A stretch of 64,000 nucleotides of DNA from a virus. Its lineage: Duplodnaviria > Heunggongvirae > Uroviricota > Caudoviricetes. This document shows positions 5,038-36,189 of the stretch, one piece after another; the stretch's first letter is position 1; every line of letters starts with the position of its first letter. Made by a program: the position numbers and the translations under genes. The stretch lies in the IMG/VR virus record IMGVR_UViG_2660238580_000002; one strand, written 5' to 3'. Under the pieces are notes generated by a model that was given only the letters and a program-made list of their open reading frames with translations, was not told where the DNA came from and did no database searches.

Positions 5038-8439
<3,402 letters not shown>

Positions 8440-16781: not shown

Positions 16782-17572
16782 TTACGCCAGTTGTACGGAC
16801 ACGAACGCATCAGGGTCAGCCAGCAGCATCAGCGGTGCTGACTGAATCATGGTGAACTCACGCGCCGGATCGCCGGTGGTCACCCAGTTTTTCGGGTAAC
16901 GGGCAGAGGCGTTAATGCCTTCGCGCTGTGCGTCCGCATCCTGAATGCAGCCATAGGTGCGCAGACCGCGTGCCTGAGTGTTCCCCAGCACCATCGTGTT
17001 GTCCGGCAGGAAGTTCTTTTTGACGCCGTTTTCCACGTACTGTCCGGAATACACGACGATGGCCACATCGCCATACATCCCCTTATAGGACACCGCTTTG
17101 CCCAGGTCTTTCACCGCTGTCTCCAGCTCGGAATTAGAGCCACGACGGGTATCCAGCTTCTCCTTGACGGCTTTGAAGGAACGGAACAGCGCCCAGCCTT
17201 TCGGATCGAACACGATGATATTCACCACACCGCTGGCGTTCAGCGCGTAGGCTTCGATATCGTCGGTCGGGTCATACGTGGACTTGTCACGCTTGCTCCA
17301 CTCCGTGCCGCCGGACTGCGTGATGTTATTCTCCTCACTGCGGCCCATATCCACCTCAACCGGATCGAAGGCTTCACCGGTCATGGTGTATTTGCCCTTA
17401 AGCACGGCAGAAACTGCCTGCATCTCTTCGACCTGAGCAATGGCCAGCTCTTCGTCACGCATGTTCTGCATGATGATGCGACGGCGGCGGTAAGCCGGGT
17501 CCGCCAGATTCTGCGGATCTTCATCCGGCAGGCGACGCAGGGTCATCTGCGGATTCACTTCATGCTTCGGCT
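16782..17572 (-). pseudogene. E: Major capsid protein E, 3' fragment (from ...PKHEVNPQ to C-terminus), cut off from its 5' part by the satellite
   Basis: Reading frame continues lambda gpE from codon ~80 onward; no start codon or N-terminus here. Confidence 0.9.
17563..17572. repeat. Left junction direct repeat TGCTTCGGCT (att core within gene E)
   Basis: Identical 10-mer at 30000-30009; E-derived sequence stops being contiguous after it. Confidence 0.8.
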
Positions 17573-17706
17573 ACATGAGTCAAATATGAAAGGATGTGAA
17601 TGATTTGATTACGTTTTAGCTATAGAATTGAAATGGAAAATCCTTGAATGCAATACAACGTGCAATACATGGATGAAAACCATCACTCATTTAACAAGAG
17701 GAATCT

Positions 17707-18612
17707 ATGCGCTCACCCAACAGAATGCATGAACGCTCAACATTTTATAAGTATATGTCGTTGAATACCGCGAAGATTGTTCTTGATTCATGCAGCCTTA
17801 GATGGAGTTCTCCGGTCCTATTTAATGACCCTTTTGATGTTCCAAGAGAAGTTATGCCTGGTATTAACGAAATTAATATTGGCAAAGCTTTAGCCCGCAA
17901 GTTAATAGCGGAGTTGATTACCCCCAGAGAAGACATACAAAATTTAAACCCTAGAATTAGAACAATGCTAAGTGATTTCCAAAAGTCATTTCCTTTAGGC
18001 ATACCCGCAGGATTAATTGAAAGATTTCAAGAAATGGTAAACATTCCACCAGTTGGGATTGGCGCTCCTGCGGCAATACAAGAAATGAAAGATGTCTGGC
18101 GAGGAATGCTTAATAACAGAAGGATTTTGTGTTTATCTGAGAGCCCTATAATCACTCCTATGTGGAATCACTATGCCGATAAATATAAAGGTATAGTTAT
18201 CGAATTTGATTGTGTAGACTTTCTGGATAGCGCTTGGTTAATAGCCAAACCTATGAAATACACAGATAAAATGCCTCTAACTCACACTGCTGAAGGGATG
18301 GCCGAGTTGCTTTTCATGCCAGACAATAAGTCAATTGAATATATCAATAATGAGATAATATTCATAAAAACAGAAGAATGGGCATATGAAAGAGAGTGGA
18401 GAATTTCAACCTACGCTAGGCCAAATAGCACTGGTCAATATAGCGACTTAAAATTTCACCCTTTTGAGTTAAAATCTGTAATACTTGGTCCTCTTTTTGA
18501 TGCCAGCGAGTTCGATGAAGTCGCATCACTAGTTAAGATGTATCCAAGAGCGAAATTATTTAAAAGTTCATTTGGGAACGACAGAAAAATATCCATAGTA
18601 CCACTACCTTAA
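17707..18612 (+). CDS. DUF2971-like protein (uncharacterised satellite cargo)
   Basis: 301-aa ORF with motifs FYKYMS...LFNDPFD, YKGIVIEFD, EEWAYEREWR recalled as DUF2971 hallmarks; only plus-strand gene at this satellite end. Confidence 0.5.
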   Translation: MRSPNRMHERSTFYKYMSLNTAKIVLDSCSLRWSSPVLFNDPFDVPREVMPGINEINIGKALARKLIAELITPREDIQNLNPRIRTMLSDFQKSFPLGIPAGLIERFQEMVNIPPVGIGAPAAIQEMKDVWRGMLNNRRILCLSESPIITPMWNHYADKYKGIVIEFDCVDFLDSAWLIAKPMKYTDKMPLTHTAEGMAELLFMPDNKSIEYINNEIIFIKTEEWAYEREWRISTYARPNSTGQYSDLKFHPFELKSVILGPLFDASEFDEVASLVKMYPRAKLFKSSFGNDRKISIVPLP

Positions 18613-18718
18613 AAGGTCAAATGCTTTTGACAAATAAAATCTATCGCCAGTTTTACTGGCGACTTTTAAGCAACAAAGAACCACCTAAGCACTCTTCCTA
18701 CCTATGGTTTCATTTGTT

Positions 18719-19270
18719 TTAACTTCGCTGATTATCCTTGATATACCTTTCAGCCATATCTGGAATGTTATCTGAGATCTGGTAAGCTCGAATAAATGCT
18801 TTACTGACCTCCATCTTAATGAAGTCCTGATACCGTTTTTCCATGCCAGGAAACTGTCGACAGATCGCAAGTGGAAGACTATCAATGATTGCTCCAACTT
18901 CCCCAGTTAATTTCGACAAGGCATAAGTCGCAAATGCAGTGTCAATTACCTCACCTGTTTCGCTGGCATTCTTCAGTTCCTGTGCGTCGGCCTGCGCACG
19001 CGTAAGTCGATGGCGTTCGTACTCAATAGTCCCTGGCTGGAGATCTGCCTCGCTGGCCTGGCGCAGTTCTTCAACCTCCCGGCGCAGCTTTTCGTTCTCA
19101 ATTTCAGCATCCCTTTCGGCATACCATTTTATGACGGCGGCAGAGTCATAAAGCACCTCATTACCCTTGTCACCGCCTCGCAGAACGGGCATTCCCTGCT
19201 CCTGCTAGTTCTGAATGGTACGGATACTCGCACCGAAAATGTCAGCCAGCTGCTTTTTGTTGGCTTCCAT
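18719..19270 (-). pseudogene. Terminase small subunit Nu1 homologue with in-frame amber codon at codon 22
   Basis: ATG at 19270 reads MEANKKQLADIFGASIRTIQN then TAG (19205-19207) where helper Nu1 has TGG; ORF resumes at Met28. Confidence 0.8.
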
Positions 19271-19515
19271 TGTTCATTCCACGGACAAAACCAGAGAAAG
19301 GAAACGACAGAGGCCAAAAAGCCTGTTTTTAGCACCTGTCGTTTCCTTTCTTTTTAGGGGATGTTTTTAATAAAAACATTAAGTTACGGCGAAGAAGAAC
19401 GGAAACGCCTTAAACAGGAAAATTTTCACAAATAGCGAAAACCCGCGCGCCTGACGCCCCGTAGCCTGTCAGATCGCCGGAAAGGACCCGCCAGCCAGAG
19501 CGGGCCCTAATTTCA
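19271..19515 (-). promoter_or_regulatory. Satellite cos region (cosB-like conserved, cosN-equivalent divergent)
   Basis: Closely similar by eye to helper cos at 36190-36420, but the 12-mer at 19447-19458 differs from helper cosN at several positions. Confidence 0.6.
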
Positions 19516-19899
19516 TCAACCAATCAGCTTATAGCGACCATCCCGTGCATTGCGGCGTACACGCTCAATCTTGAGGCATAGCGCCGCATCTGGCTTTTTT
19601 GGGACAGGTACGCGGCAATATTCAGAAGCGCGAGGAATATTATTTATCCAGTCGATCACTTCACTTAAATACCAGGCCTTACGCCCTTCCGTAACCTGCA
19701 CACGCTCCGGGAACTCTCCACTAGCCTCAAGGTTTAGCAGTGTACGCCGACTCAGGGTTGTAATTTCCATCACCTGATTCATATCAACAAGGCGCTCGCT
19801 TAAACACATTTTGTCAGCGATAGCTTTTAATTCCTCTACAGCTGGATTCGGGTACATCATTTCGGCAATTGGCTTAAGGTCATTGTAATCATTCTGCAT
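19516..19899 (-). CDS. AlpA/excisionase-like HTH protein
   Basis: 127-aa ORF; C-terminal segment resembles AlpA-family HTH; lies next to satellite cos. Confidence 0.45.
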   Translation of the reverse strand: MQNDYNDLKPIAEMMYPNPAVEELKAIADKMCLSERLVDMNQVMEITTLSRRTLLNLEASGEFPERVQVTEGRKAWYLSEVIDWINNIPRASEYCRVPVPKKPDAALCLKIERVRRNARDGRYKLIG

Positions 19900-19910
19900 T
19901 GTATCCCCCT

Positions 19911-20252
19911 TTACACACGAGCCAGCGGCTGAACAGAAATACCTGAGCCAACAAACGCTGCAATCTTTACTGACAGTTCTTTTACAGACTCAGGCCAGTT
20001 CAGAGCATCAACATTTAAGACACCTGTCTTATAGACCTGAGCCCGTGTTTTTTTCGCGGTGTCGATTTGTACAGCGGAAACATAAACCGCTTTACCTACG
20101 CTCGAACCATCCCATACCACCAGTGCACCTGTTGCATCTTCCTGCATCAGTGGCGTAAATGCAGGAATTACCCCTTTATTAGCTGAAAATATCCCCAGCG
20201 TAGTCACCAGTGCTTCAGTGCCAGCCATGAGTTCAGTGTAATGAGTAGCCAT
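19911..20252 (-). CDS. Head decoration protein, gpD-like (satellite-encoded)
   Basis: 113 aa; aligns by eye with lambda gpD (PLM...WDG... core). Confidence 0.65.
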   Translation of the reverse strand: MATHYTELMAGTEALVTTLGIFSANKGVIPAFTPLMQEDATGALVVWDGSSVGKAVYVSAVQIDTAKKTRAQVYKTGVLNVDALNWPESVKELSVKIAAFVGSGISVQPLARV

Positions 20253-20261
20253 TGCTCCCCC

Positions 20262-21302
20262 TTAGCCAATGCGAACGGTAACAAAACGATTGATGCGGGC
20301 CGGTATTGGCTGTGGTGCTGAATGTGTCTGCACATATTCAATAGCCGGATCACCAGGTACAATATAGTTTTTCGGTGCAAGTTCGGCTTTAGTCAGCCCC
20401 ATTCGGATTAGCTCCGGATCCTGAATACCGCCATAGGCGACAATCCCCTGAAGAGCCGTATTGCCAAGCACCATCAAATCAGGATCAAGGAAATGTTTTT
20501 CTGTTCCGTCCTCGTCGGTATAACGCCCGCTGTAAACAACAATCGCAACATCGCCCATATACCCTTTAAAACTCACCGAATCACCAAGGTCTTTAAGGGC
20601 CGTTTCCAGTTCGGAATTAGAACCACGACGGGTATCCAAAGCCTCTTTTATCGCTCTGAATGAACGGTATTTCTTCCATACATTACCACCCATAATGATG
20701 ATATTAGTGACGCCCTCACTAAATTCTGCGTAGCTCTCAATATCATCATTTGGATCAAAAGTTTCTTTATCCTTACTTGACCACTCAGTACCGCCAGACT
20801 GAGTGATGATATTTTGTGGTTTTATATTCCAGTCCAGCTCATAACGTTCAATACCATCGCCCTCAATGATATTTTTCCCCGTTGTGATTGCCTGAACAGC
20901 AAGCCATTCAATACGTGCACGAATAGCTTTAGCTTGATTTACAATCGCCTGTTTAACTTTAATATTACGCGCCCCAAAAGCATTGTATTGCTCAGGTGAT
21001 ACACCAGCAGGGCGCACAGCTAACTTATTTGGATCAATGCTGCTTTTCGGCTTCATATAGCCTGGACGAATTGTTTTTGATTCGTACCCTTCGTCACGTG
21101 AAACTTTACTACCCACCATAGGAGAACAAAACGCTGCAATTGGGATATTTGGATCGTCGATTGTATCAAGAATAATATCGCGCGATTCAAACATTACCGA
21201 GCGAGTAAAAAACAAACTGGTAAACAACGCATTTAGTTGTTTTTGTACATCTACAGCATTAACCACCTGTACAAGCTGGGTAGGCGAATATAAATCAACC
21301 AT
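20262..21302 (-). CDS. Major capsid protein, gpE-like (satellite-encoded, divergent)
   Basis: ~347 aa from Met with AGAGGA RBS; C-terminal half close to lambda gpE (ITQSGGTEWS...DTRRGSNSELETA...), N-terminal half divergent. Confidence 0.75.
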   Translation of the reverse strand: MVDLYSPTQLVQVVNAVDVQKQLNALFTSLFFTRSVMFESRDIILDTIDDPNIPIAAFCSPMVGSKVSRDEGYESKTIRPGYMKPKSSIDPNKLAVRPAGVSPEQYNAFGARNIKVKQAIVNQAKAIRARIEWLAVQAITTGKNIIEGDGIERYELDWNIKPQNIITQSGGTEWSSKDKETFDPNDDIESYAEFSEGVTNIIIMGGNVWKKYRSFRAIKEALDTRRGSNSELETALKDLGDSVSFKGYMGDVAIVVYSGRYTDEDGTEKHFLDPDLMVLGNTALQGIVAYGGIQDPELIRMGLTKAELAPKNYIVPGDPAIEYVQTHSAPQPIPARINRFVTVRIG

Positions 21303-21587
21303 ACACATCCTCTTTGCATTCATTAAAAATAATTGTGGATATATGCTATCACCAATATTTGTCATGCGAATACATGCAACCGAGTGCAATGTTGTATAAA
21401 GTTTTGGGATGACAACTTCAGCGCGGATAATTAGTGTTAATATATTCACTCCCTTTGGTCGGGATTTATGTAGCATGCCGGAAAATTTATTTTTTCCGGC
21501 CTTTTTTATTGGCAATATTTAAAACGGAATATCATCTCCCCATTGCTCATTATCTCCCACTGGTGGATGGCTTCCTTGCTGATCTGC

Positions 21588-21968
21588 CTATTGTTTTGCT
21601 CTGTTCAGTGCGTCAGTAGCCTGACCCTGTTGACCTTTTTTGCCGCCCGGTCGCACCGTTCGCGCACTGATTACGCTGTCTGCGATAACCTGCCAGCCCT
21701 GCCGCGTTTCACCGTTCTGTCCAGTCCACTGGCTCACCTGCATGTTACCCGCCACGCTCAGGAGTTCGCCTTTGTGATGCTTTGCCAGCGCATCGGCTTG
21801 TCTGCCAAACGCCAGCACAGATAACCACATCGTCGCCGTTCCGTCATCTGCCTGGCTGCATGGCAAAGATACCGCCATCCGTGCCAGTGTCATGGGTGTT
21901 CCCTTGCTGGTATGTTTTACCTGTGGGTCGTCCACCAGCCGCCCGTAAGCTGCTATTTGCGCCGTCAT
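21588..21968 (-). CDS. SSB-like OB-fold protein
   Basis: 126-aa ORF with SSB-like pattern (W..VLAFGRQA..L.KG..L.V.G); weak. Confidence 0.4.
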   Translation of the reverse strand: MTAQIAAYGRLVDDPQVKHTSKGTPMTLARMAVSLPCSQADDGTATMWLSVLAFGRQADALAKHHKGELLSVAGNMQVSQWTGQNGETRQGWQVIADSVISARTVRPGGKKGQQGQATDALNRAKQ

Positions 21969-21979
21969 GCTGCCTGCTC

Positions 21980-22222
21980 TCAGGACTTAATATTGATGGT
22001 TGTCACTTCCTCCGCTTCGGCAATCTCCCGTTCGGTCAGCGTGGCAAAGTTTGCAGCCGCCGTTGTCATGAATGCGCTTATCAGTTCGGGATGTGCTTTC
22101 GCGTATCCTTCCCCGGCGTTGCGGTCTATTGCCTTAATCGCCACCCTTAGCCAGTGTTCAGCCATATCAAGGGCGCGGTAATGTGGCTTTATATGTTTGT
22201 TCAGTTTTCCTGATGTGTGCAT
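21980..22222 (-). CDS. Hypothetical protein
   Basis: 80-aa ORF between ori and SSB-like gene. Confidence 0.4.
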   Translation of the reverse strand: MHTSGKLNKHIKPHYRALDMAEHWLRVAIKAIDRNAGEGYAKAHPELISAFMTTAAANFATLTEREIAEAEEVTTINIKS

Positions 22223-22259
22223 TTTTATTTTTACCCCCTCGTTTAAAAAGTTTTTTGTG

Positions 22260-22500
22260 CACCACCACCTTGTCTACCTTGTCTACCTGATTAGTTATCA
22301 GGCCAGTAATGGCGCGGGTTTCAGAGAGGTAGACAGCCCCAAATAGCTGTCTACCTCATCTCTACCCGTCTCCTTACCTGTCTACAAAAATGGGTAGATA
22401 AGGTAGATAACAGGTAGACAGTGAAAAATAGTTATCTACCTGCATTAATACATTGAAATAAAAGTATTTTATTTCAGTCAGGTAGACAAGGTAGATAACC
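22260..22500. repeat. Satellite replication origin: ~12 iterons (GGTAGA[C/T]A core, both orientations) around an AT-rich tract
   Basis: Repeated gtctacc/ggtagac motifs directly upstream of pri-rep. Confidence 0.8.
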
Positions 22501-22511
22501 ATTGCCATTTT

Positions 22512-24263
22512 TTATAAAAACGCATCGCAATCATCAGTAGTCGTTGCGTTGGTCTGAGTGACTCCCTTAACTTTTCGCGTAATATATTCATATCCGTAAA
22601 CTTTCGCCGCTGACCTCATAGCCTTTCCGAACTCATTCACGCTCAAACATTTCCCCTTTCCTGTATATGCCATGAAGGCCATATAGACACGGTAAAGGCT
22701 GTTTCTGGTCGTGTACTTCACGGTGTCACCACCACCGCCCATCATTAGCCCACGAGCTTCCTCCAGAAACTCCAGCGCCGCGCAAAGCTCAACAACCGGA
22801 TCCGTTTGCTGCTTTATTGCCAGAGCTTCATCACCGTCACGCTGTTCCAGTAATAAAGCCCGTGCCTTTTCAGGGTCAGCAAAATTAGCCAGCAAGCGGC
22901 GGATAATTACGGGGATTTCTGCCGCTATCTTTTCCGGTAATTCCTTGTCTTTTTCGTCCTCCCTTACAATGTTGTCGAACCGGAAAATCACCCGACGGCG
23001 TGACACACCTCCGGCCCGTTCGGTAAAGATCATCGGGTCGTTATTGGTTGCCAGTACCACCGCCCTTATTATCGTCGTGAATCGCTTCTCATATTTCGGG
23101 TTAATTTCAACGGGATCGCCTCCCGTGATTTTCTTGATGCCCGTGCCTTCCCCCGTATATTTCGGCTGATCGGCAAGGACGATAAGACGACTCCCGACAA
23201 CCTGCGCGCGCCCTCCTGCATCATCGAGTGATGTCATCTCTGCGCTTACGGTGTTCTGTTTGCCAGCAAGCAGGGTGGCAATATGAGTAAATGTGCTCTT
23301 TCCGCTTCCCCCGTCTCCGGTGGCCTCAATGAACATCTGCCAGTCGTAGCGGTTCGCCATAATCATGTATAACGCGGCACATATACGCATCATCTTGCGC
23401 GGGTCTTTTCCTGCAGCATGTTCAAGCCATTTATGGAAATTTGGCGCATTATCGCGGATGTTTTCCCCTGCTACTGGTGGCGTGTACTCAATACCATTGT
23501 GCGTGGTGCTCCAGTGCTCCGGCGAGTGCGGAGAAAATTCCCCCGTTTTCAGATTAAGCACACCATTAGTGAACGGTAGCAAATCACCGGACGGCTCCCC
23601 CATGGGGGCGGCAATAACTTTTAACGCTTCCACGGCGTTATTGATTACGCGCTTGCTGAACGTGGCCCTGTGCTCTGAATAGATCGCCACCATTTCGCGG
23701 CTCAGCTCCATTGTGCTGACCGGACACCATACCCCGCCGCGCCATACGTGGACGATTTCACTTTCTGCATGAACACAAACACCATCAAAGCGATCGGCAA
23801 GTAGTTGTGCCCGCTCACTGTCTGCCATCTGTGAAAGTTGCGCCTTTTGCTTCGTCGGAAGATTAAGCACCAGGCTTTCCCCACGCTCGCATTCCTCTTT
23901 GAGTCGCGGCAACTGGTCGGATAAATCCACTGGGCTGGTGTCAGTAATCCCCGCGTATTCGTGTACGGTCTTCACTCCAGCCACAGCCAGTAACGTAACA
24001 ATCTGCGTCATGCTGTGCTCTGTGATATGTCCTGCGCGGTAAACACGCACACACTGACGATCTTCATCAATGATCCGGTAATCGGTGATGTTTTTCAGTT
24101 GCTCATCAGCCAACACGACAGGCGGCACATCGTCGGCGGCAATATGTTTACCCGCCCATTCCTGCCACTCTTTCGCATGGCTCCACGCATCACTACCTGC
24201 AAAGATGATTACCTCTGTCAGTCTGTCGCGTGGCTGTTTTTTTAAGTTCGGTGCCAGTTTCAT
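22512..24263 (-). CDS. Primase/helicase replication protein (Pri-Rep, P4-primase family)
   Basis: 583-aa ORF with P-loop GDGGSGKST and helicase-like C-terminus; adjacent iteron ori. Confidence 0.8.
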   Translation of the reverse strand: MKLAPNLKKQPRDRLTEVIIFAGSDAWSHAKEWQEWAGKHIAADDVPPVVLADEQLKNITDYRIIDEDRQCVRVYRAGHITEHSMTQIVTLLAVAGVKTVHEYAGITDTSPVDLSDQLPRLKEECERGESLVLNLPTKQKAQLSQMADSERAQLLADRFDGVCVHAESEIVHVWRGGVWCPVSTMELSREMVAIYSEHRATFSKRVINNAVEALKVIAAPMGEPSGDLLPFTNGVLNLKTGEFSPHSPEHWSTTHNGIEYTPPVAGENIRDNAPNFHKWLEHAAGKDPRKMMRICAALYMIMANRYDWQMFIEATGDGGSGKSTFTHIATLLAGKQNTVSAEMTSLDDAGGRAQVVGSRLIVLADQPKYTGEGTGIKKITGGDPVEINPKYEKRFTTIIRAVVLATNNDPMIFTERAGGVSRRRVIFRFDNIVREDEKDKELPEKIAAEIPVIIRRLLANFADPEKARALLLEQRDGDEALAIKQQTDPVVELCAALEFLEEARGLMMGGGGDTVKYTTRNSLYRVYMAFMAYTGKGKCLSVNEFGKAMRSAAKVYGYEYITRKVKGVTQTNATTTDDCDAFL

Positions 24264-24559
24264 TTTTTGCCCCTGAATGCGTTAATCATGCTTTTCATTT
24301 TCTGGATGTTTCCCCGCGCTTTTTCCCTGCTGATGGGCTTACTGCGGGGTGCGGCATATACCAGGGAAAAATCACGCCGGAACTGATAAACAGGCATCAC
24401 GCAGTCATAGCTATACCCCTCACGACGGTAAGTGATGCGCCGTTCTGCCACGCCTTTAATCGTTACCGTGCCGCCGTATTTATCGCGGTAAATATCGCCG
24501 TTCATAAATTCAGGCCGAGCGGGGCCGCTGGCAATAAAGCCAGAATTTTTCATTTCCAT
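24260..24559 (-). CDS. Hypothetical satellite protein
   Basis: 99-aa ORF, stop overlaps pri-rep start. Confidence 0.5.
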   Translation of the reverse strand: MEMKNSGFIASGPARPEFMNGDIYRDKYGGTVTIKGVAERRITYRREGYSYDCVMPVYQFRRDFSLVYAAPRSKPISREKARGNIQKMKSMINAFRGKK

Positions 24560-24576
24560 ATTATTTATTCCTCGAC

Positions 24577-24798
24577 TTAACTCGACTTATTTGATAGCAG
24601 GGCACTATTTATTGCGTCATTGAGTTTTTCTGCTGCTTCATCAATAAGTGACAACAGGCCATAAGCAATATTTGCATCTTCATTGTCATTTATGCAATCA
24701 AGCCACATATTTAATATTGCTTTTGCTGAATTATTTAAAGTTAATGAACTTTCTGCACATGCTAACAATTTAAAAAAGACTTCCCGTTCTGTATTCAT
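24577..24798 (-). CDS. Hypothetical satellite protein
   Basis: 73-aa ORF in minus-strand operon. Confidence 0.4.
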   Translation of the reverse strand: MNTEREVFFKLLACAESSLTLNNSAKAILNMWLDCINDNEDANIAYGLLSLIDEAAEKLNDAINSALLSNKSS

Positions 24799-24990
24799 TT
24801 AATCCCCCACCAGCTTACTTTCTTCCTCAATCAAAAAACTAGCGACACTTCCCGAAAGACGCGCCAGTAGGCTCGCCAGTGCGGATATATCAGCATCTGT
24901 AATTTTGTTCGGGTATACCTCAAGAAGGCGGCAAATAATTTCTGTCTGGTGCGCACGTTCAGCGGCTTCGTGTAATGTGATTTCCTGCAT
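24799..24990 (-). CDS. Hypothetical satellite protein
   Basis: 63-aa ORF in minus-strand operon. Confidence 0.4.
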   Translation of the reverse strand: MQEITLHEAAERAHQTEIICRLLEVYPNKITDADISALASLLARLSGSVASFLIEEESKLVGD

Positions 24991-25182
24991 TAATGCACCT
25001 CTTTTAATTCATACACTGCTGAAATAATGACTTGTGATAAGCCATATTCTGATGATTCGCTTCTCACCGCAGCAATAGCCGTCTGAACATTAACAGCCTT
25101 CACGTTCTGAGCGATACCAATTGTGTGGCCTAGTGGGTTAACCGCACGAGCAAATACACGGAAGGTTTTAAGCACGGCATAC
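24990..25182 (-). pseudogene. Satellite ORF body separated from its start by IS629
   Basis: Frame is open across the IS629 target site but has no ATG downstream of the insertion; the track ORF borrows IS sequence for its N-terminus. Confidence 0.4.
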
Positions 25183-25224
25183 TGAACCGCCCCGGGTTTC
25201 CTGGAGAGTGTTTTATCTGTGAAC

Positions 25225-26115
25225 TCAGGCTGCCAGATCATCGTTTCCGATGGAAGCATAATAAGCTTTTTCTGCTTCTGCCGGAGGAGTATGGCCCAGC
25301 CTTTCCAGCAATCGTCGATTGTTATACCAGTCCACCCACGTGAGTGTGGCCAGTTCCACTTCTGCACGGTTTTTCCAGCTCTTACGGTGTATTACCTCCG
25401 CTTTGTAAAGACCATTGATGCTCTCCGCCATCGCGTTGTCATACGAGTCGCCTGTACTTCCTGTTGATGCCAGTAATCCGGCTTCCTTAAGCCGCTGTGT
25501 GTAGGCCAGCGATACATACTGAGAACCTTTATCACTGTGATGGACCGTGCCGGACGGTCGACGGGCCCATAACGCCTGCTCCAGTGCATCCAGCACGAAT
25601 GTCGTTTCCATGGACGATGAGACCCGCCACCCCACGATGTATCCGGCAAACACATCAATGATGAACGCCACATAGACGAAGCCCCGCCATGTGCTGACGT
25701 AAGTAAAATCAGCCACCCACAGCTGGTCAGGTCGTTCTGCCACGAACTGACGGTTTACGCGGTCGCCTGCGGCAACGGCTTTCCGGCTGATGGTCGTACG
25801 GACCTTTTTACCCCGGAGAACACCGGCAAGTCCCATAACCGCCATGAGACGTGCCACAGTGCATCTGGCCACTCTGATACCTTCCCGTAACAACTGACGC
25901 CAGACTTTACGCACACCGTATACCTTGTGATTTTCATCGTATACGCGCTGTATCTCTTTCTTCAGCCAGTCATCGCGCTGCGCACGGGCACTGCGTTTAT
26001 CCGGATGATGTCGCTGTTGCTGACAGTGGTAATACGTTGACGGGGCAATATGCAGTTCGCTGCATAGCGGTCCGACCCCGTACTGCTCACGCAGCTTATC
26101 CAGCAGTGGCATCAT
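25225..26115 (-). CDS. IS629 transposase OrfB (DDE, made as OrfAB by frameshift)
   Basis: 296-aa [21 protein letters not shown]... Confidence 0.9.
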
Positions 26116-26438
26116 TTTTTCCAGAGGCGGTCGAACTCCGCCTTCGCAAAATAAGCGGAAGCCTGGCGAAGGATATCGTTACTGCGGCGCAGTTCACGAT
26201 TTTCACGTTCCAGCTCTTTCAGACGCTGACGTTCAGCGGTGGTGAGCCCTCCATCACCGCCCCCGGTATCCCGCTCATGCTGGCGAACCCAGACACGCAG
26301 AGTCTCCGGCGTACAGCCAATCTTTGGAGCAATGGAACAAATTGTCGCCCATTGTGAGTCATATTCGCTCTGACTTTCCAGAACCATACGGACTGCCCGT
26401 TGACGGACTTCGGGGGAAAAACGAGTATTTTTAGTCAT
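26112..26438 (-). CDS. IS629 OrfA
   Basis: 108-aa [22 protein letters not shown]... Confidence 0.9.
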
Positions 26439-26492
26439 CCTGTTTACCTCTTTCTCAGGAAGTTTAGTCTCCAGGATTCCCGGGGCGGTTCA

Positions 26493-26684
26493 TACCTCCT
26501 GACGAATACGGGCGGCAAATATCATCACGCAGCCAGTTGGGGATTGTTGGCGGGCTTCCTGTTCGCTGGCGGCCTCGATGTGTATTACGCGTGGTTGTGC
26601 GGTGCTCAGGGCGATAAAACGCCAGATGTATTTATTCAGGTTGTGCGGGTCCCGCCCTTGCGGGTGTGTGGTATGATTTCTCAT
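26493..26684 (-). CDS. Small satellite protein, last 3 codons replaced by IS629 end
   Basis: 64-aa ORF; stop codon supplied by the IS terminus. Confidence 0.45.
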
Positions 26685-26779
26685 AGCTATCTCGATACTG
26701 TTGCTATCGTTGGTGGTTAGAAGCCCGTTGGTGTTCCTAGCGCCTTCGGGCTTTGCTTTTTTAAGTGCCTCCGTGTTAA

Positions 26780-26823
26780 GGTGGTCACCTAACAGTAAAA
26801 AGGCTAATTCAATAGGTGGTCAC
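26780..26823 (+). promoter_or_regulatory. Two GGTGGTCAC direct repeats (operator-like) in the divergent promoter region
   Basis: Identical 9-mers at 26780-26788 and 26815-26823, 35 bp apart, upstream of the RHH gene. Confidence 0.35.
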
Positions 26824-27015
26824 TTGTCAACAATCAAACGCGATAAAAGTCCTAAGGGTGATGGGCAATCTCCACAATTCAGAATGCGAATTTCTCCAGA
26901 GCTAAAAGAGCAATTCGACAAAGAAGCGCAGAGCGACGGCATAAGCCTAGCCAACTGGCTTAAAGAATTAGGGCGCAAAGAGCTGCTACGGCGCGGTATT
27001 GAACCAAAAGGATAA
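26824..27015 (+). CDS. Ribbon-helix-helix (Arc/MetJ-like) DNA-binding protein, candidate satellite repressor
   Basis: RHH-like FRMRISPELKEQFDKEA...LANWLKELG; possible TTG start after AGGTGG (ATG alternative at 26884); divergent from leftward operon. Confidence 0.45.
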   Translation: MSTIKRDKSPKGDGQSPQFRMRISPELKEQFDKEAQSDGISLANWLKELGRKELLRRGIEPKG

Positions 27016-27042
27016 GAGTAATTGAAGTCAAGGAGCTAACAC

Positions 27043-27399
27043 ATGAAATACGAATTCTTCGCAACAAGTAGCAGTAGTTTGGATGTATACATAGTCACTG
27101 TATCAAACGATTCTAGCTCGCTAATCATGACTTGCAATTGTCCAGCAGGAAGTAAAGGTATTCTATGTAGACACCGTAAAGCTTTAATTACCGGAAAAAT
27201 CCGTGGTATATTCACTCCCCCAAGAAGGAATAATCCCGAAAAGTTACAAGAAGCTATAAATTTAATAACCACATATGGCATAGATAAAACATTAAAGTTG
27301 TACACTGATGAGTTAGAACGAGCAGAACAGACTTGGATAAGTGTTCGCGATAATTTGAGAGCAATGATAAACGCTCTTGTTGAACCACCTAAATATTGA
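27043..27399 (+). CDS. SWIM-zinc-finger-like small protein
   Basis: 118-aa ORF with CNCPAGSKGILCRH (CxCxnCxH). Confidence 0.4.
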   Translation: MKYEFFATSSSSLDVYIVTVSNDSSSLIMTCNCPAGSKGILCRHRKALITGKIRGIFTPPRRNNPEKLQEAINLITTYGIDKTLKLYTDELERAEQTWISVRDNLRAMINALVEPPKY

Positions 27400-27530
27400 A
27401 CTGTTCACATTGCCTATCAGTCGACAACCTCGTATTCTGATTAAGGCTAACTATATACTCACATTGGCGACCAATTCTGGTCGCCTTTATCCACCATTTT
27501 TATAACATCATAGATTAAAAGTGTTAATCC

Positions 27531-28361
27531 TTACCCCCTGAATGGAATTGATGAGGATTTAATTTCCACTGAACTAAATCCTTTTGAATCCAAGAACATT
27601 TTTATACCAGCCTCAATGAAATCATAATCGTTTGTCGGGCCAATAGTAATACTTTTAATTGGTAACTTCCTATGATCTTTATTACCAATGATGATATAAG
27701 GGATGACACCATTATTATTTATTCTGAATTGCACATCTGGTATTAGTATGCGCGGAGTAAATACCAATCTAAATTCATTTTCTTCGATAAAACTAGGATG
27801 TTTAAAAAATGGGATGTATTTAGATATAAATTGATACGTAGAGGCCATTGTTACAAAATGATCATTCTTTTCTTTAATATTAATACCATTACAAGAAAAA
27901 AACGCCCCCAACTCCTTACTCATCTTAGTAACATCGTTATTATTTGAATATATAACATCATGTGCAACACAATTTAAATAAATATTTTGAGAAAAGCTCA
28001 CAAGTTCATCCGCATCAAACTCAATGCAAACACCCTGTTTATTTCCGTAACCTCTCCACTGACTTAACTTATCGTTTTCCTTACAAAAAGAGATGCTATA
28101 AACATGTTTATCAATCCCTTTTTCTTTTTGTAACCTCCCTTTCTCATACATGTCAAGAGACTTGAGCAAAATAGTTTTCTTATCTTTTGGAATGATATTG
28201 TCATCAACTATTTTAATTGTATTTCGAAAGCATTCACATCCATGGTTAGACTCCTCTTTATCATTTAAGAAATATATGTTTGTAGCCCATAAAGAATTAG
28301 AGTCTAATATACCTTTCAAACCAAAAAGATCTGTATAATGAAATATAGCCACAATGCCCAC
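27531..28361 (-). CDS. DUF2971-like protein (second copy; cargo downstream of alpA)
   Basis: 276-aa ORF with FHYTDL...LWATNIYFLNDKEE, SQWRGYG..GVCIEFD, FIEENEFRL motifs. Confidence 0.5.
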   Translation of the reverse strand: MGIVAIFHYTDLFGLKGILDSNSLWATNIYFLNDKEESNHGCECFRNTIKIVDDNIIPKDKKTILLKSLDMYEKGRLQKEKGIDKHVYSISFCKENDKLSQWRGYGNKQGVCIEFDADELVSFSQNIYLNCVAHDVIYSNNNDVTKMSKELGAFFSCNGINIKEKNDHFVTMASTYQFISKYIPFFKHPSFIEENEFRLVFTPRILIPDVQFRINNNGVIPYIIIGNKDHRKLPIKSITIGPTNDYDFIEAGIKMFLDSKGFSSVEIKSSSIPFRG

Positions 28362-28368
28362 CTAATAG

Positions 28369-28599
28369 TTAAGTTGTTTCCCACTCACCTCGAATCCATG
28401 CCTGCACTTCTGAAAGACGATATGCAACAGCAGTGGAACCAATCTTGATCCGCTTAGGAAATTTTCCTTCCTTCTCCAGCTTCCAGCGTGTGCTGTTCGC
28501 AAGAGTGGTTAGCTCCCGACATTCTTTCTCACGGATCATTCGGTCAATGTTAGGAATGTACTCCAGACCCTTTTTATCAACAATTGCCATTTTTTTCAT
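28369..28599 (-). CDS. alpA: AlpA-family transcriptional regulator
   Basis: 76-aa ORF directly downstream of int, AlpA-like HTH. Confidence 0.75.
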   Translation of the reverse strand: MKKMAIVDKKGLEYIPNIDRMIREKECRELTTLANSTRWKLEKEGKFPKRIKIGSTAVAYRLSEVQAWIRGEWETT

Positions 28600-28600
28600 G

Positions 28601-29836
28601 TTAACCAGCCTTTTGTTTGAGGATTGTCACTTTTGAATCAGCACCTGCGATGCTATTGAGATATGTAGTCCAGAGTTCCAGAGCATCCAGTTTTTTAGCC
28701 ATAAACTTACTCCGGTTGTAAACACCTGCCACGCCAGGTAGCGCATGGCCTAACAGTTGTTCTACTACATAAAATTCAACACCGAGATCACTTAGATGAG
28801 TAGATAGCGTTCTTCTAAGGTCGTGTAGTGACCATTGTTTTTCATGGCCCAAACGTTTACCGATTTTCCCCCCAATCTTGCTTACGCTTTCTCTAATTCG
28901 CAGACTTCCCAGCACATAACCAGTATGTTTTGTCTCTTCGTGAACATCCGTTACCCACTGTCGTAGAATTTCAGGTACTGGTCTGACGATTTCAACACCG
29001 GTTTTTGAGTGTTCTTTTGGTACAGTCCAAACCCAACTTTCTAGATCCCATTCGCTCCATTCTGATAATCGGGCTTCACTCATTCGACATCCAAATACTG
29101 TACAAAGCACAAACATTTTTCGCGTGTATTCAGACATTAGTTTTAAATCAGGCTCGACAAAAATTGCCTTCCAGAGCTGGCCCAGTTCGGCTTCATCCAG
29201 AACCCGATCCCGCTTACCTGCAATCTGCCCCACATCACTCATGCGCAAATCCTTTAAAGCATCACACGTCGCGTACTGGCGTACCCGACAAAAACGAAGA
29301 GCTAATTTAGTGTCAGAAAAAACATACGCCGCCATAACTGGTGCATTACGTTTAATTCGGTCAAAACAGTCCAGCCATTCATATAGGTGAGTGTCATTTA
29401 CGGGCAAATGACCGATATAGGGAAAGATATGCTTTCGAAATCTGCCAAGCGTTACAGCATGAGTTTTACGACGCACCTTACAGTAATTTTCATACCAGTA
29501 ATTTAGTGCATCCTCCACTGTGACCGGCTTTAAGCGTTCTTCAGCCTGAATCTTAATCTGGATACGCGGATCACGTTTGTCAGCCAACCAACCACGGCAC
29601 TCGTCGCGCTTTTCTCTTGCCTGTTTGAGTGACATATCAGGATATTTACCCAACGTTAGCCAGACCGGAGCAGCCCGGCCACCTGCTAACCTGTAGAAGA
29701 AAACAAAGCTCACAGCCCCCTTAGTACTCACACGAATAGAAAGCCCCTTTCCATCAGCAATGGTGATCTGCTTTTCTCTGGGTTTCCCCAGATATCCTTT
29801 AAGCGCTTTGTCGCTCAGTTTGTTCTCGCCAGCCAT
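28601..29836 (-). CDS. int: Tyrosine integrase (P4-type)
   Basis: 411 aa from MAGENKLSDKALKGY; catalytic HDLRRT...LGH...Y region; adjacent to right att repeat. Confidence 0.9.
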   Translation of the reverse strand: MAGENKLSDKALKGYLGKPREKQITIADGKGLSIRVSTKGAVSFVFFYRLAGGRAAPVWLTLGKYPDMSLKQAREKRDECRGWLADKRDPRIQIKIQAEERLKPVTVEDALNYWYENYCKVRRKTHAVTLGRFRKHIFPYIGHLPVNDTHLYEWLDCFDRIKRNAPVMAAYVFSDTKLALRFCRVRQYATCDALKDLRMSDVGQIAGKRDRVLDEAELGQLWKAIFVEPDLKLMSEYTRKMFVLCTVFGCRMSEARLSEWSEWDLESWVWTVPKEHSKTGVEIVRPVPEILRQWVTDVHEETKHTGYVLGSLRIRESVSKIGGKIGKRLGHEKQWSLHDLRRTLSTHLSDLGVEFYVVEQLLGHALPGVAGVYNRSKFMAKKLDALELWTTYLNSIAGADSKVTILKQKAG

Positions 29837-29968
29837 TTTTAGCCCCAAAAAGCAATACAAGCTGCAATACAGAGATGATTGCAACACACAGATAACGAGG
29901 AAAATCCAGTGAAAGCGCCAGATAATCTTATTCTTTATTATCAAAGAATTAAGTGTAAAAACCAGCAA

Positions 29969-30244
29969 CTACACGAAAGCCTCAGAAAGCCATGCTAAGT
30001 GCTTCGGCTTGACATATCCCGGCGTAAATTCAGAGGTGGAGCCGCCACGGGAACGGATAACCTCACCGGAAACAATCGGCGAAACGTACAGCGCCATGTT
30101 TACCAGTCCCGGAATTTGTGAGAGATAGACTTTCTCCGTGGTGAAGGGATAGCTCTCACGGAAAAAGAGACACAGAAACAGCGGATCAAACTTAAATTTC
30201 TGCTCATTTGCCGCCAGCAGTTGGGCGGTTGTGTACATCGACAT
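29969..30244 (-). pseudogene. E: Major capsid protein E, 5' fragment (codons 1-82 fused to 9 satellite codons and a stop)
   Basis: MSMYTTAQLLAANEQKFKFDPLF...GYVKPKH then LAWLSEAFV*. Confidence 0.9.
30000..30009. repeat. Right junction direct repeat TGCTTCGGCT (att core within gene E)
   Basis: Identical to 17563-17572; E sequence resumes immediately after. Confidence 0.8.
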
Positions 30245-30299: not shown

Positions 30300-30632
30300 T
30301 TAAACGATGCTGATTGCCGTTCCGGCAAACGCGGTCCGTTTTTTCGTCTCGTCGCTGGCAGCCTCCGGCCAGAGCACATCCTCATAACGGAACGTGCCGG
30401 ACTTGTAGAACGTCAGCGTGGTGCTGGTCTGGTCAGCAGCAACCGCAAGAATGCCAACGGCAGCACCGTCGGTGGTGCCATCCCACGCAACCAGCTTACG
30501 GCTGGAGGTGTCCAGCATCAGCGGGGTCATTGCAGGCGCTTTCGCACTCAATCCGCCGGGCGCGGTTGCGGTATAAGCCGGGTCACTGTTGCCCAGCGGC
30601 TGGTAATGGGTAAAGGTTTCTTTGCTCGTCAT
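30300..30632 (-). CDS. D: Head decoration protein D
   Basis: [12 protein letters not shown]... 110 aa, lambda gpD. Confidence 0.95.
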
Positions 30633-30641
30633 AAACATCCC

Positions 30642-31941
30642 TTACACTGGTGTGTTCAGCAAATCGTTAACGGCATCAGATGCCGGGTTACCTGCAGCCA
30701 GCGGTGCCGGTGCCCCCTGCATCAGACGATCCAGCGCAGTGTCACTGCGCGCCTGTGCACTCTGTGGTGCTGCGGCCAGAATGCGGCGGGCCGTTTCCAC
30801 GGTCATACCGGGGGTTTCTGCCAGCACGCGTGCCTGTTCTTCGCGTCCGTGAGCCTCCTCACAGTTGAGGATCCCCATAATGCGGCTGTTTTCTGCCGCA
30901 ACCGCTGCGGTGATCTGCGCGTTCACGTCCGGCTGCGCCGCGCTGGCGTTTTCGCCCTCCGTCGCTGGCACCACGTCAGTAACGTCAGCCTGCGAAGCAG
31001 TGGCTGAAACAGTTGTTGATTGAGTCTCTTTGGTCATTCGCCCTCCTGAGAGACGGGATTTACGTGCATCCAGTGCATCACGCATGACGGTGATCGCATC
31101 GGTGCTGTTAACAAGTTCATCAGCCAGTCCGGCATCAATGGCCTCCTGACCGCTGTACACTGCAGCCTCGGTATCCAGCACAGCCTGCACGGACAGGCCG
31201 GTATATGCCGACACCTTCTGCGCAAACATCTGGCGGGTTGCGTCCATCCGGGACTGCAGTGTCTCCCGGACGTCATCCGGAAGATGGCTGTAGGGGTTGC
31301 CATCCACCTTATGGCTGCCGCTGTAAATCAGAGTGATTTCCACACCCTGTTTCTCCAGCGCAGCACCGTAATTACTGTGAGCCATCATGACGCCGATGGA
31401 GCCTGTCCGGGCGGTCTGCGTGACCAGACGCCGGGAGGCGGCACTGGCAAGCAGCTGACCTGCACTGCAGTTCATGTCGTTGGCCAGCGCCCATACCGGT
31501 TTTATGTCACGCACACGGGCGATGATGTCAGCGCAGTCAAATGCCCCCGCCACCATCCCTCCGGGCGTGTCCATATCGAGCAGAATGCCGTCCACCATCG
31601 GATCGCTGGCAGCCTGTTGCAGACGGGCGATAATGCCGTTGTAACCGGTCATCCCCGAATACGGCTGCAGCGCCCGCGTCCGGCTGACCAGCGTGCCGGA
31701 CACCGGCAGCACGGCGATGCCGTTCATGACCTGATAACTGCGGGCCTGTCGTGGTCCGTCATCATCAACGGATAACGCCAGCGCCGCGGGTGCCTCTCCG
31801 GCAGTCAGGCTGTCGCCGGACACCGCATCCGTCAGGCGGCTGATCCCAAGCTGGCCTGCAAGCGCACAAAAGAAAACCCGCGCATAGGCGGGTTCAAGCA
31901 TCAGCGGCTCATTAAAAGCCATGCTGGCAATATGCGGGAGA

Positions 31942-31961
<20 letters not shown>
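30642..31961 (-). CDS. C: Capsid assembly protease/scaffold C (Nu3 nested in frame), GTG start
   Basis: VTAELRNLPHIASMAFNEPLML...; first codon GTG where lambda has ATG (from memory). Confidence 0.85.
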
Positions 31962-33743
<1,782 letters not shown>

Positions 33744-33747
<4 letters not shown>

Positions 33748-35669: not shown

Positions 35670-36189
35670 TCAGCAACCCCGGTATCAGTTCATCCAGCGC
35701 GGCTGCTTTGTTCATGGCTTTGATGATATCCCGTTTCAGGAAATCAACATGTCGGTTTTCCAGTTCCGGAAAACGCCGCTGCACCGACAGGGGGATCCCG
35801 TCGAGAATACTGGCAATTTCACCTGCGATCCGCGACAGCACGAAAGTACAGAATGCGGTTTCCACCACTTCAGCGGAGTCTCTGGCATTTTTCAGCTCCT
35901 GTGCGTCGGCCTGCGCACGCGTAAGTCGATGGCGTTCGTACTCAATAGTCCCTGGCTGGAGATCTGTCTCGCTGGCCTGCCGCAGTTCTTCAACTTCCCG
36001 GCGCAGCTTTTCGTTCTCAATTTCAGCATCCCTTTCGGCATACCATCTTATAACGGCGGCAGAGTCATAAAGCACCTCATTACCCTTGCCACCGCCTCGC
36101 AGAACGGGCATTCCCTGTTCCTGCCAGTTCTGAATGGTACGGATACTCGCACCGAAAATGTCAGCCAGCTGCTTTTTGTTGACTTCCAT
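35644..36189 (-). CDS. Nu1: Terminase small subunit Nu1
   Basis: 181-aa ORF MEVNKKQLADIFGASIRTIQNWQEQG..., lambda Nu1. Confidence 0.95.
   Translation of the reverse strand: MEVNKKQLADIFGASIRTIQNWQEQGMPVLRGGGKGNEVLYDSAAVIRWYAERDAEIENEKLRREVEELRQASETDLQPGTIEYERHRLTRAQADAQELKNARDSAEVVETAFCTFVLSRIAGEIASILDGIPLSVQRRFPELENRHVDFLKRDIIKAMNKAAALDELIPGLLSEYIEQSG

Follow-up and report, generated by a model that had tools for sequence, protein, structure and literature searches.

[quoted passage not shown] The whole is very probably best explained as this known kind of element together with a conserved late-zone pair of capsid and decoration genes whose function may be conditional. The arrangement itself is already known, as HE-PICIs were described in 2023 (Tommasini et al.) and the capsid and decoration genes of PICIs in 2018. 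Figure 1 of Tommasini, Mageeney and Williams 2023 (PMC10111431) shows just such a satellite, lying within E and carrying an E homologue of its own, and the same study counts 201 instances at the E site and reports that 21 of the 29 reference PICIs of Gram-negative bacteria have a capsid gene.

The satellite within the helper E gene

The satellite is flanked by 10-bp repeats and spans 12,437 bp between the cores and about 11.1 kb when an IS3 insertion is subtracted. The element, its insertion site and the helper head genes are as follows.

17573..29999 (-), satellite (helper-embedded PICI, 11capE type), delimited by the flanking 10-bp repeats and by Pfam/PHROG gene content
30000..30009 (-), attL core AGCCGAAGCA, inside helper E, codons 79-82
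17563..17572 (-), attR core AGCCGAAGCA, the 10-bp direct repeat
30010..30244 (-), N-terminal fragment of helper E, approximately the first 78 codons (Phage_cap_E, 2.3e-14, profile positions 1-78)
16782..17562 (-), C-terminal fragment of helper E (Phage_cap_E, 6.1e-51, profile positions 94-328)
28601..29836 (-), satellite tyrosine integrase, 99.5% identical to 11capE Int
28369..28599 (-), AlpA, excision and regulation (Pfam Phage_AlpA, 3e-15)
25180..26490 (-), IS3-family insertion with an ALIL frameshift pseudoknot, missing from the ES10 copy
22512..24263 (-), primase-helicase (D5_N, DUF5906, Pox_D5 by Pfam/PHROG), 47% identical to the NRG857c primase
21588..21968 (-), single-strand DNA-binding protein (Pfam SSB, 4.8e-15)
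19516..19899 (-), late-zone HTH protein of the AlpA type (Phage_AlpA, 7.6e-09; PHROG 2790; PDB 8C3T)
30300..30632 (-), helper decoration gene D, intact (Pfam HDPD, 4.6e-21)
30642..36189 (-), helper C (S49 protease/scaffold), B (portal), W, A and Nu1, all intact

Fusion of the two E fragments at the core gives an uninterrupted 1026-nt ORF for an intact 341-aa E. The first-pass annotation was thus right that the satellite splits the helper E gene, and also that the helper keeps its own D, portal B, protease C and terminase, all of which are intact by Pfam, as is FI. Its larger claim, that the satellite brings its own E and D while knocking out the E of the helper, stands only in part. The split is real, the knockout is reversible by excision, and the coupling of the two does not hold, because the same module is found at sites other than E.

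The annotated core genes of the satellite are all co-oriented with the helper late operon, in the order int, alpA, accessory genes, primase, SSB, capsid, decoration, HTH, cos and Nu1-like. The accessory cargo consists of two DUF2971/PDC-S31 genes, and the IS3 insertion lies about 10 nt ahead of the stop of an Icd-like gene. With int, alpA and a primase-ori region, a length in the range of about 10 to 15 kb, a mostly unidirectional gene arrangement and no lysis or tail genes, the element has the makeup by which Gram-negative PICIs were defined (Fillol-Salom 2018), and its integrase falls in the E:Phage_cap_E_80 subclade of HE-PICIs. The twin element in ES10 (L001), which has no IS, is 98% identical over the aligned stretches, which cover 89% of the query.

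Portal, protease, head-tail connector and TerL genes were found neither among the satellite ORFs nor in the RefSeq annotation of the ES10 twin, and the same is true of scaffold-like or Sid/CpmB-like genes (Pfam/PHROG, twin annotation) and of the P4-like Sid, Psu and Delta families (scanned ORFs, twin annotation). A tblastn search of the window with RppA gave a best E value of 0.21, inside an IS, and the other late-zone proteins of EcCICFT073 were not found in the window. The HTH protein resembles none of the CFT073 late-zone proteins and has no PDB match to Rpp. In an Rfam scan of the satellite, P4-type CI/seqA (C4, isrK) immunity RNAs were absent and the IS3 ALIL pseudoknot was the sole match. 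These results agree with the earlier description of the element as a satellite that differs from Rpp-type redirection, from P4 with its Sid and Psu, and from capsid-forming PICIs. The latter (EcCIEDL933; Alqurainy et al., bioRxiv 10.1101/2022.09.08.507074) likewise combine a PICI backbone with their own capsid protein, but they add portal, protease, head-tail connectors, HNH, TerS and TerL, whereas the window element has only a TerS pseudogene. The further statement that it is unlike known Escherichia coli PICIs has to be withdrawn, as EcCICFT073 carries the same pair and the NRG857c element has the same configuration.

The NRG857c element, HE-PICI Eco567.11capE, resembles that of the window in its insertion site in a lambda-type E, its orientation and its gene order. 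The two are 97 to 99% identical over the integration and late modules (Int 99.5%, capsid 99.4%, decoration 99.1% and HTH 100% at the protein level) and have the same variant cosN 12-mer. They differ in the replication module, where the primases are 47% identical, in cargo (HEPN and DUF262 in NRG857c in place of the DUF2971/PDC-S31 genes), and in the IS3 insertion of the window copy. The att core is AGCCGAAGCA in the window and AACCCAAGCA in NRG857c, each matching the E allele of its own helper.

The late end of the satellite holds a packaging region.

19271..19500 (-), satellite lambda-like cos region, with cosB nearly as in lambda
18719..19270 (-), pseudogene for a Nu1-like small terminase subunit, stopped in frame at codon 22 (19205-19207)
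36367..36378 (-), helper cosN, canonical GGGCGGCGACCT

The satellite cosN 12-mer, at 19448-19459, reads GGGCGTCAGGCG in place of GGGCGGCGACCT. The N-terminal approximately 100 residues of the Nu1-like pseudogene product are nearly those of lambda Nu1 and the C-terminal part is divergent; in ES10 the gene is annotated as "terminase small subunit, internal stop." The cos and Nu1 segment as a whole is 93% identical to that of the helper and is decaying. The altered cosN 12-mer and the Nu1-like pseudogene are traits of the E-embedded lineage, a new observation of the present analysis. Because of the IS3 insertion, the pseudogene and the noncanonical cosN, the copy in the window may not be fully mobile.

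The capsid and decoration proteins

The two genes on which the first-pass annotation had focused are adjacent, with the decoration gene always directly 3' of the capsid gene.

20262..21302 (-), satellite major capsid protein gene, 346 aa, lambda-E family, HK97 fold, satellite-specific clade
19911..20252 (-), satellite head decoration protein gene, 113 aa, gpD/SHP family

The product of the capsid gene matches Pfam Phage_cap_E (PF03864) at 3e-42 over profile positions 4 to 327 of 329, with 145.3 bits against a gathering cutoff of 22.9, and is therefore a full-length member of the family; it also belongs to PHROG 29, "major head protein" (1e-89). Among PDB entries it matches 3BQW (1.5e-121) and lambda gpE (7VI9/7SJ5, approximately 1e-77). 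An AlphaFold2 model (pLDDT 79, pTM 0.80) gave TM scores of 0.91 against 3BQW and of 0.84 to 0.87 against lambda gpE (7VI9/7SJ5), and confirms a predicted HK97 fold that can be superposed on the solved gpE. The decoration protein matches Pfam HDPD (PF02924) at 6.7e-15, with 55.7 bits against a gathering cutoff of 29.1, PHROG 49, "head decoration" (1.3e-25), and the structures 1TD0, a head decoration protein (5.9e-16), and lambda gpD (approximately 1e-11; 7VII_H, 9.5e-12). The earlier assignments of a complete gpE-like gene and a gpD-like neighbor, for which a profile and structure comparison with the lambda proteins had been proposed as the check, are therefore upheld for both families. Named NCBIfam families were found for none of the capsid, decoration, HTH and DUF2971 proteins, and a scan for promoters and terminators around the capsid gene gave counts at or below the shuffled expectation.

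Overall, the satellite capsid protein and the reconstructed helper E are 42% identical. By alignment columns, identity is 22 to 35% in columns 1 to 160 and 57 to 65% in columns 161 to 280, in agreement with the first impression of a divergent N-terminal and a close C-terminal half. In the model, the divergence from E lies mainly before the long spine helix (108-141) and includes a low-confidence loop (56-74). The corresponding parts of HK97-fold proteins, the N-arm and E-loop, generally make intercapsomer and scaffold contacts. The decoration protein shares 34% identity with helper D, and its clade has its own conserved N terminus, 5 aa shorter than that of gpD, and a conserved C-terminal SVQPL extension, both unlike gpD. 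Divergence of the capsid protein within its first approximately 160 residues, together with the distinct termini of the decoration protein, fits a coadapted pair. The pair shares its folds and families (PF03864, PF02924) and its gene adjacency with lambda gpE/gpD and 1TD0; the capsid gene precedes the decoration gene in the satellite, whereas D precedes E in lambda.

The prototype Gram-negative PICI, EcCICFT073 (Fillol-Salom 2018, PMC6092414), has adjacent genes, c1499 and c1500, downstream of its replication module, as in the window. Their products share 55% and 54% identity with the window proteins, compared with only 42% and 34% for lambda E and D, and 3BQW is the crystal structure of the EcCICFT073 capsid protein. 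EcCICFT073 is chromosomal, adjoins phoQ and is not prophage embedded, whereas the window element is embedded. EcCICFT073 has Rpp (c1503) and a lambda-like cosN and no cosB, in contrast to the window element with its lambda-like cosB, its Nu1-like pseudogene and no Rpp.

Distribution and selection

Of 5426 complete E. coli genomes, 173 contain the attL junction and 395 the capsid-decoration module. The capsid-decoration(-HTH-TerS) block occurs in satellites within the portal gene B (L002, L006), at clpS-cspD (L003, L004), adjoining fis (L008, L011), at a different chromosomal site in Salmonella (L010) and adjoining phoQ in EcCICFT073 (L005). These portal, clpS-cspD, fis, Salmonella and phoQ contexts rule out that carriage of E and D homologues is coupled to insertion in E. 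In all contexts examined, in at least five genera, the pair was linked to satellites.

A search of 50,697 phage records with the satellite capsid protein gave lambda E as the best match, at 42.3% identity, and none reached 60%. Identities to the satellite capsid protein are bimodal, with 45 sequences at 50 to 100% (the window protein counted) and 63 at 38 to 42%, and four members of the capsid clade (51 to 74% identity) were all in int-alpA-primase contexts. From these comparisons, and as a new observation, the pair forms a satellite-only clade, to which sequenced phages are at most approximately 42% identical. A recent capture from a phage head module is ruled out, as no phage record exceeds approximately 42% protein identity and likeness to lambda-type E at the DNA level is limited to about 100 bp at 78 to 80%.

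In five E. coli copies the ORFs are intact and identical in length, and dN/dS was 0.07 to 0.10 for the capsid gene and 0.05 to 0.17 for the decoration gene. These ratios (approximately 0.08) place the pair under strong purifying selection, also a new observation of the present analysis. Purifying selection speaks for the existence of a function and is silent on which function it is.

A metagenome scaffold (L012) encodes a hybrid (P0043) of E (1-228) and satellite capsid protein (229-342), with the crossover in 16 nt of exact identity. Its junction was found in 0 of 5426 complete E. coli genomes, and the hybrid, an assembly artifact or a rare recombinant, was set aside as evidence.

Possible roles of the pair

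The pair is the conserved "late zone" module of enterobacterial PICIs, homologous to c1499/c1500, and would consist of a cognate shell subunit and its cementing protein. As the satellite has no portal, protease/scaffold, terminase or tail of its own, the pair could work only with those of the helper. As the same module is present in satellites outside E, it did not evolve as a device to replace a knocked-out E. In the life cycle described for such composites, induction leads to excision and replication of the whole composite, and late transcripts of the helper are proposed to extend into int and alpA. The satellite then leaves E, which is thereby restored, and replicates with its own primase and origin; virions built by the helper are presumed to take up its DNA through the cos packaging system of the helper (PMC10111431). 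For the published NRG857c element, excision was 42 to 98% by 2 to 3 h after induction, and particles and plaques of the composite were not recovered by Tommasini et al. (PMC10111431).

Strong purifying selection and the satellite-only clade argue for a benefit that is real and probably conditional. The functional reading that we prefer, at a probability approaching even, is that the proteins enter or form procapsids that serve the satellite with some natural helpers and are dispensable in the laboratory with lambda, phi80 and the CFT073 prophage. In EcCICFT073, deletion of c1499 or c1500 changed neither transfer nor lambda interference, and the packaged DNA was all phage sized. A stronger form, "partial capsid autonomy," suggested by a clade that is conserved across Enterobacterales under strong purifying selection with neither a phage counterpart nor a laboratory phenotype, is unlikely as a whole: the pair would, given the right natural helper, assemble shells reserved for the satellite, possibly small ones, on the helper portal and scaffold, and in an E-embedded satellite its coat protein, being the only one until excision, would have first claim on procapsids.

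The first-pass annotation had suggested capsids sized for a 12 kb genome. Such size redirection, in which shells of T=3 or T=4, made of the satellite capsid protein by itself or together with helper E, would hold one 11 kb satellite genome and shut out the 48 kb helper genome, is in our judgment quite improbable. By analogy, it could resemble the case of SaPIbov5 Ccm (Carpena 2016; Hawkins 2021, PMC8569155), likewise a homologue of the helper HK97-fold capsid protein encoded by a cos-packaged satellite, which sits in the pentamers of T=4 procapsids and turns prolate phi12 heads into T=4 heads (PMC8569155), and that of PmCI172, which carries a capsid homologue and makes small heads. However, Ccm has no sequence relationship to the E. 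coli pair and no decoration partner, and it converts head size, whereas the E. coli pair is not known to do so and the homologous EcCICFT073 packages phage-sized DNA. The divergence from E, most of which falls in the N-terminal portion of the fold and which includes loop 56-74, would suit redirection, as would the satellite sizes, which cluster at approximately 10.3 to 11.1 kb (estimates from gene tables). Unit size does not discriminate, because four copies of 10.3 to 11.1 kb also fill a lambda head (41 to 45 kb); by a volume-scaling estimate, one hypothetical T=3 head could hold such a length as well, and unit length was discarded as a test between small capsids and multimers. The phage-sized DNA of EcCICFT073 with lambda, the only homologue assayed, and the phenotype-free deletions are indirect evidence against 12 kb-sized capsids, and the failure to find a scaffold-like or Sid/CpmB-like gene in the satellite also counts against redirection.

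Similarly improbable is a backup role, suggested in the discussion of PMC10111431, in which the satellite capsid protein would stand in for the split helper E before excision. Until then its gene, co-oriented with the late operon, is the one E-family member left intact among the late-transcribed genes of the composite. However, the module is equally conserved where E is uninterrupted, nonembedded satellites included, and the protein has only 42% identity to E, diverges from it in the N-terminal half and comes with a decoration partner of its own; moreover, helper E is back in 42 to 98% of copies by 2 to 3 h (PMC10111431).

We regard as very unlikely that one or both proteins are poison subunits that co-assemble with helper E or D and spoil its capsids. 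PICIs generally interfere with their helpers, and the conservation with E in the central and C-terminal parts (57 to 65%, columns 161 to 280) could permit co-assembly, but interference with lambda was unrelieved by deletion of c1499 or c1500 and is due to Rpp (c1503), and the PADLOC defense models match neither protein.

That the pair is a functionless passenger, the recombined fragment of a prophage head module that had been named beforehand as the outcome that would refute the proposal, is hardly credible: helper late genes do get captured by PICI late zones, and the neighboring cos and Nu1 segment is 93% identical to the helper and decaying, but a dN/dS of about 0.08, intact ORFs of equal length in five E. 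coli copies, the absence of closer relatives among 50,697 phage records and the tie to satellites in every context examined, in at least five genera, contradict it.

The conditional role in satellite-serving procapsids that we favor concerns a pair retained in hundreds of enterobacterial satellites, under strong purifying selection, despite phenotype-free deletions. Solving its role would tell whether classical PICIs stand midway between satellites that take every capsid part from a helper and those that make their own heads, and could bear on engineered PICI-based delivery particles.

The split E gene and its satellite

A lambda-like prophage lies on the minus strand of the window; its head and packaging genes are all intact by Pfam except for E, which is split by a satellite. 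The N-terminal fragment of E starts at 30244 and is interrupted after ...PGYVKPKH, and the C-terminal fragment picks up at about 17560 with EVNPQMTL... and runs to 16782. The 10-bp repeat AGCCGAAGCA lies at both junctions (30000-30009 and 17563-17572), and joining the fragments at this repeat gives an uninterrupted 1026-nt ORF encoding a lambda-type E. The insert between the fragments is 12,437 bp long and lower in G+C. Our results thus bear out the first-pass annotation of a disrupted E beside retained helper D, portal B, protease C and terminase.

Features of the helper prophage and the satellite (window coordinates, strand)
36367-36378 (-), helper canonical cosN, GGGCGGCGACCT
35644-36189 (-), helper Nu1, intact (Pfam)
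33744-35669 (-), helper A, intact (Pfam)
31942-33543 (-), helper portal B, intact (Pfam)
30642-32096 (-), helper S49 protease/scaffold C, intact (Pfam)
30300-30632 (-), helper D, intact (Pfam)
satellite (-), tyrosine integrase and AlpA
27531-28361 (-), DUF2971 protein
satellite (+), small SWIM-type ORF
25180-26490 (-), IS3 element
satellite (-), DUF4222 protein, D5_N/DUF5906 primase and SSB
20262-21302 (-), satellite capsid gene
19911-20252 (-), satellite decoration gene
satellite (-), AlpA-like HTH protein, cos-like region and Nu1-like gene
17707-18612 (+), second DUF2971 protein

A satellite in E that bears capsid and decoration genes is an already known feature. Tommasini, Mageeney and Williams (2023) described Eco567.11capE (11capE) of E. 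coli NRG857c, an 11-kb phage-inducible chromosomal island (PICI) with a 10-bp att identity block that is integrated in the E-type capsid gene of 50icd, a lambdoid prophage, and "bears its own capsid gene"; for this arrangement they coined the term helper-embedded PICI (HE-PICI), and they counted 201 instances at the E site and 290 at 13 other prophage late-gene sites (PMC10111431). The disruption of E is reversible, as 42-98% of copies in NRG857c had excised by 2-3 h (PMC10111431). We retrieved the NRG857c locus and compared it with the window: Int (99.5%), capsid (99.4%), decoration (99.1%) and HTH (100%) proteins are nearly or fully identical, whereas identity drops to only 47% in the primase module, and the two elements carry different accessory genes. 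Among 5426 complete E. coli genomes, 173 have the attL junction of the satellite with E and 395 have the capsid-decoration module.

The identity block reads AGCCGAAGCA in the window and AACCCAAGCA in NRG857c (about 9330 and 20410 in the retrieved locus), differing at two positions; attL equals attR within each strain, and the block matches the synonymous codon choice of its own helper's E allele. The two DUF2971 proteins (17707-18612 and 27531-28361), at opposite ends of the satellite, both hit PDC-S31, a candidate defence family of PADLOC (2e-32 and 1.3e-05), and HEPN and DUF262 genes occupy the equivalent right-end position in NRG857c. These slots seem to house variable cargo, accessory or defensive. 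The IS3-family insertion, which has an ALIL frameshift pseudoknot, lies some 10 nt ahead of the stop codon of an Icd-like gene of the satellite and is missing from the otherwise 98% identical copy in ES10; tblastn matches suggest a second identical IS copy near 58,400-59,700 of the window.

The capsid and decoration proteins

The satellite capsid protein (346 aa) matches Pfam Phage_cap_E (3e-42), PHROG 29 (1e-89) and, by sequence, lambda gpE structures (about 1e-77), and its AlphaFold2 model (pLDDT 79, pTM 0.80) superposes on gpE with a TM of 0.84-0.87. The decoration protein (113 aa) matches Pfam HDPD (6.7e-15), and its PDB matches are the head decoration protein 1TD0 and lambda gpD. Identity to the helper proteins is 42% overall for capsid and E and 34% for decoration and D. 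Along the capsid alignment it is 22-35% in columns 1-160 and 57-65% in columns 161-280, in agreement with the earlier description of gpE-like and gpD-like genes, the former with a divergent N-terminal and a close C-terminal half. In the model, divergence falls mainly before and within the long helix 108-141, including the low-confidence loop 56-74, regions that we take to be the N-arm, E-loop and spine helix of the HK97 fold. In that fold these elements contact neighbouring capsomers, scaffold and decoration protein. The pattern is compatible with a capsid-decoration pair that may have co-adapted. In every satellite examined the capsid gene precedes the decoration gene, the inverse of the D-then-E order of lambda-type phages.

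The best match to the satellite capsid among 50,697 phage records was lambda E (42.3%, tblastn), and none of these records reached 60% identity. Identities in a search of 5.8 billion proteins were bimodal, with 45 full-length sequences (the window protein included) 50-100% identical to the satellite capsid and only 40-47% identical to helper E, and a lower mode of 63 sequences at 38-42%. All four clade members examined (51-74% identity) have an int-alpA-primase context with a decoration gene immediately after the capsid gene. For the decoration protein the pattern repeats in at least ten genera; its clade conserves an N-terminus and a C-terminal SVQPL tail that set it apart from gpD. By these searches the pair constitutes a clade specific to satellites. 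Purifying selection on both genes is strong, with dN/dS of 0.07-0.10 for capsid (pairs spanning dS 0.03 to 1.4) and 0.05-0.17 for decoration, leaving out one nearly identical pair with three substitutions only. The genes are intact in all five copies compared, without any difference in length.

A metagenome scaffold (L012, 2801-3829) encodes a hybrid capsid protein, P0043, which matches lambda E in residues 1-228 and the satellite capsid in 229-342, followed by a satellite decoration gene, with the crossover in a 16-nt stretch that is the longest exact identity between the two genes. Its junction occurs in none of the 5426 complete E. coli genomes and is therefore an artefact or a rare recombinant.

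Distribution of the pair and the packaging module

The capsid-decoration-HTH-TerS block occurs in satellites that sit within portal genes of lambdoid prophages (L002 of E. coli STEC316; one in Edwardsiella), between clpS and cspD away from any prophage (L003, L004), adjoining fis (Serratia and Lelliottia), at another chromosomal site in Salmonella, and adjoining phoQ in the prototype EcCICFT073. The window capsid and decoration proteins share 55% and 54% identity with c1499 and c1500 of EcCICFT073; PDB 3BQW is the crystallised c1499 protein. This distribution contradicts the view in the first-pass annotation that the element is unlike known E. coli PICIs, and also its coupling of the pair to the knockout of E; that reading was partly right on anatomy and wrong on novelty and coupling. 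The pair is a general PICI module rather than a response to E knockout, and its link to E disruption is incidental. In the Lelliottia satellite (L011), an S49 protease gene directly follows the pair and a Phage_HCP gene lies near alpA (11409-12752 and 5117-5518), so its head module is larger than usual; this satellite may represent an intermediate between classical PICIs and capsid-forming ones.

In satellites L002 to L004 the cosN is the canonical GGGCGGCGACCT, the cosB is specific to satellites and the TerS, of the Nu1 family, is intact. All three E-embedded copies examined (window, 19448-19459, minus strand; ES10; NRG857c) instead have the 12-mer GGGCGTCAGGCG. This variant could mean that the cos is dead, that the cohesive end has changed, or that the composite escapes cutting as long as the satellite is embedded. 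In the window and ES10, the copies compared with flanks, a lambda-like cosB follows the 12-mer, and this cosB and the likewise lambda-like Nu1 5' end are about 93% identical to the own helper. For 11capE, only a 258-bp cos-like similarity was reported and terS was stated to be absent (PMC10111431). The window Nu1-like gene (18719-19270, minus strand) is nearly identical to lambda Nu1 over its N-terminal ~100 aa and divergent over its C-terminal ~80 aa, and its reading frame is broken at codon 22, where a W codon has become a stop; an internal stop is annotated in ES10 too, whereas sister satellites encode the full 180 aa. Translation restarting at Met27 would yield a protein that lacks part of the DNA-binding HTH.

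Possible roles of the pair

As shown here or in the cited papers, insertion in E is site-specific and reversible, and the satellite has its own replication module; having no genes for portal, protease/scaffold, large terminase or tail, it relies on the helper for them. Late transcription from the helper would read through int, alpA and the late zone, and the capsid and decoration proteins would be made late and would work together as cognate shell and cement on assembly machinery supplied by the helper.

The analogy with Ccm, the SaPIbov5 capsid homologue, was explicitly tested in EcCICFT073 by Fillol-Salom et al. (2018): transfer of the island and interference with lambda were both unaffected when c1499 or c1500 was deleted, and all packaged DNA was phage-sized (PMC6092414). 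Since none of lambda, phi80 and the resident prophage revealed a phenotype for these deletions, the benefit of the pair must be conditional. Redirection to small capsids by the satellite capsid is unsupported, with counter-evidence that is indirect. The idea that the satellite capsid stands in for helper E is weakened by a module distribution independent of insertion site, and the idea that either protein spoils helper assembly as a poison subunit is weakened by the deletion data. Selection and distribution exclude a relic. What remains of interest is a strongly conserved clade of satellite capsid and decoration proteins.
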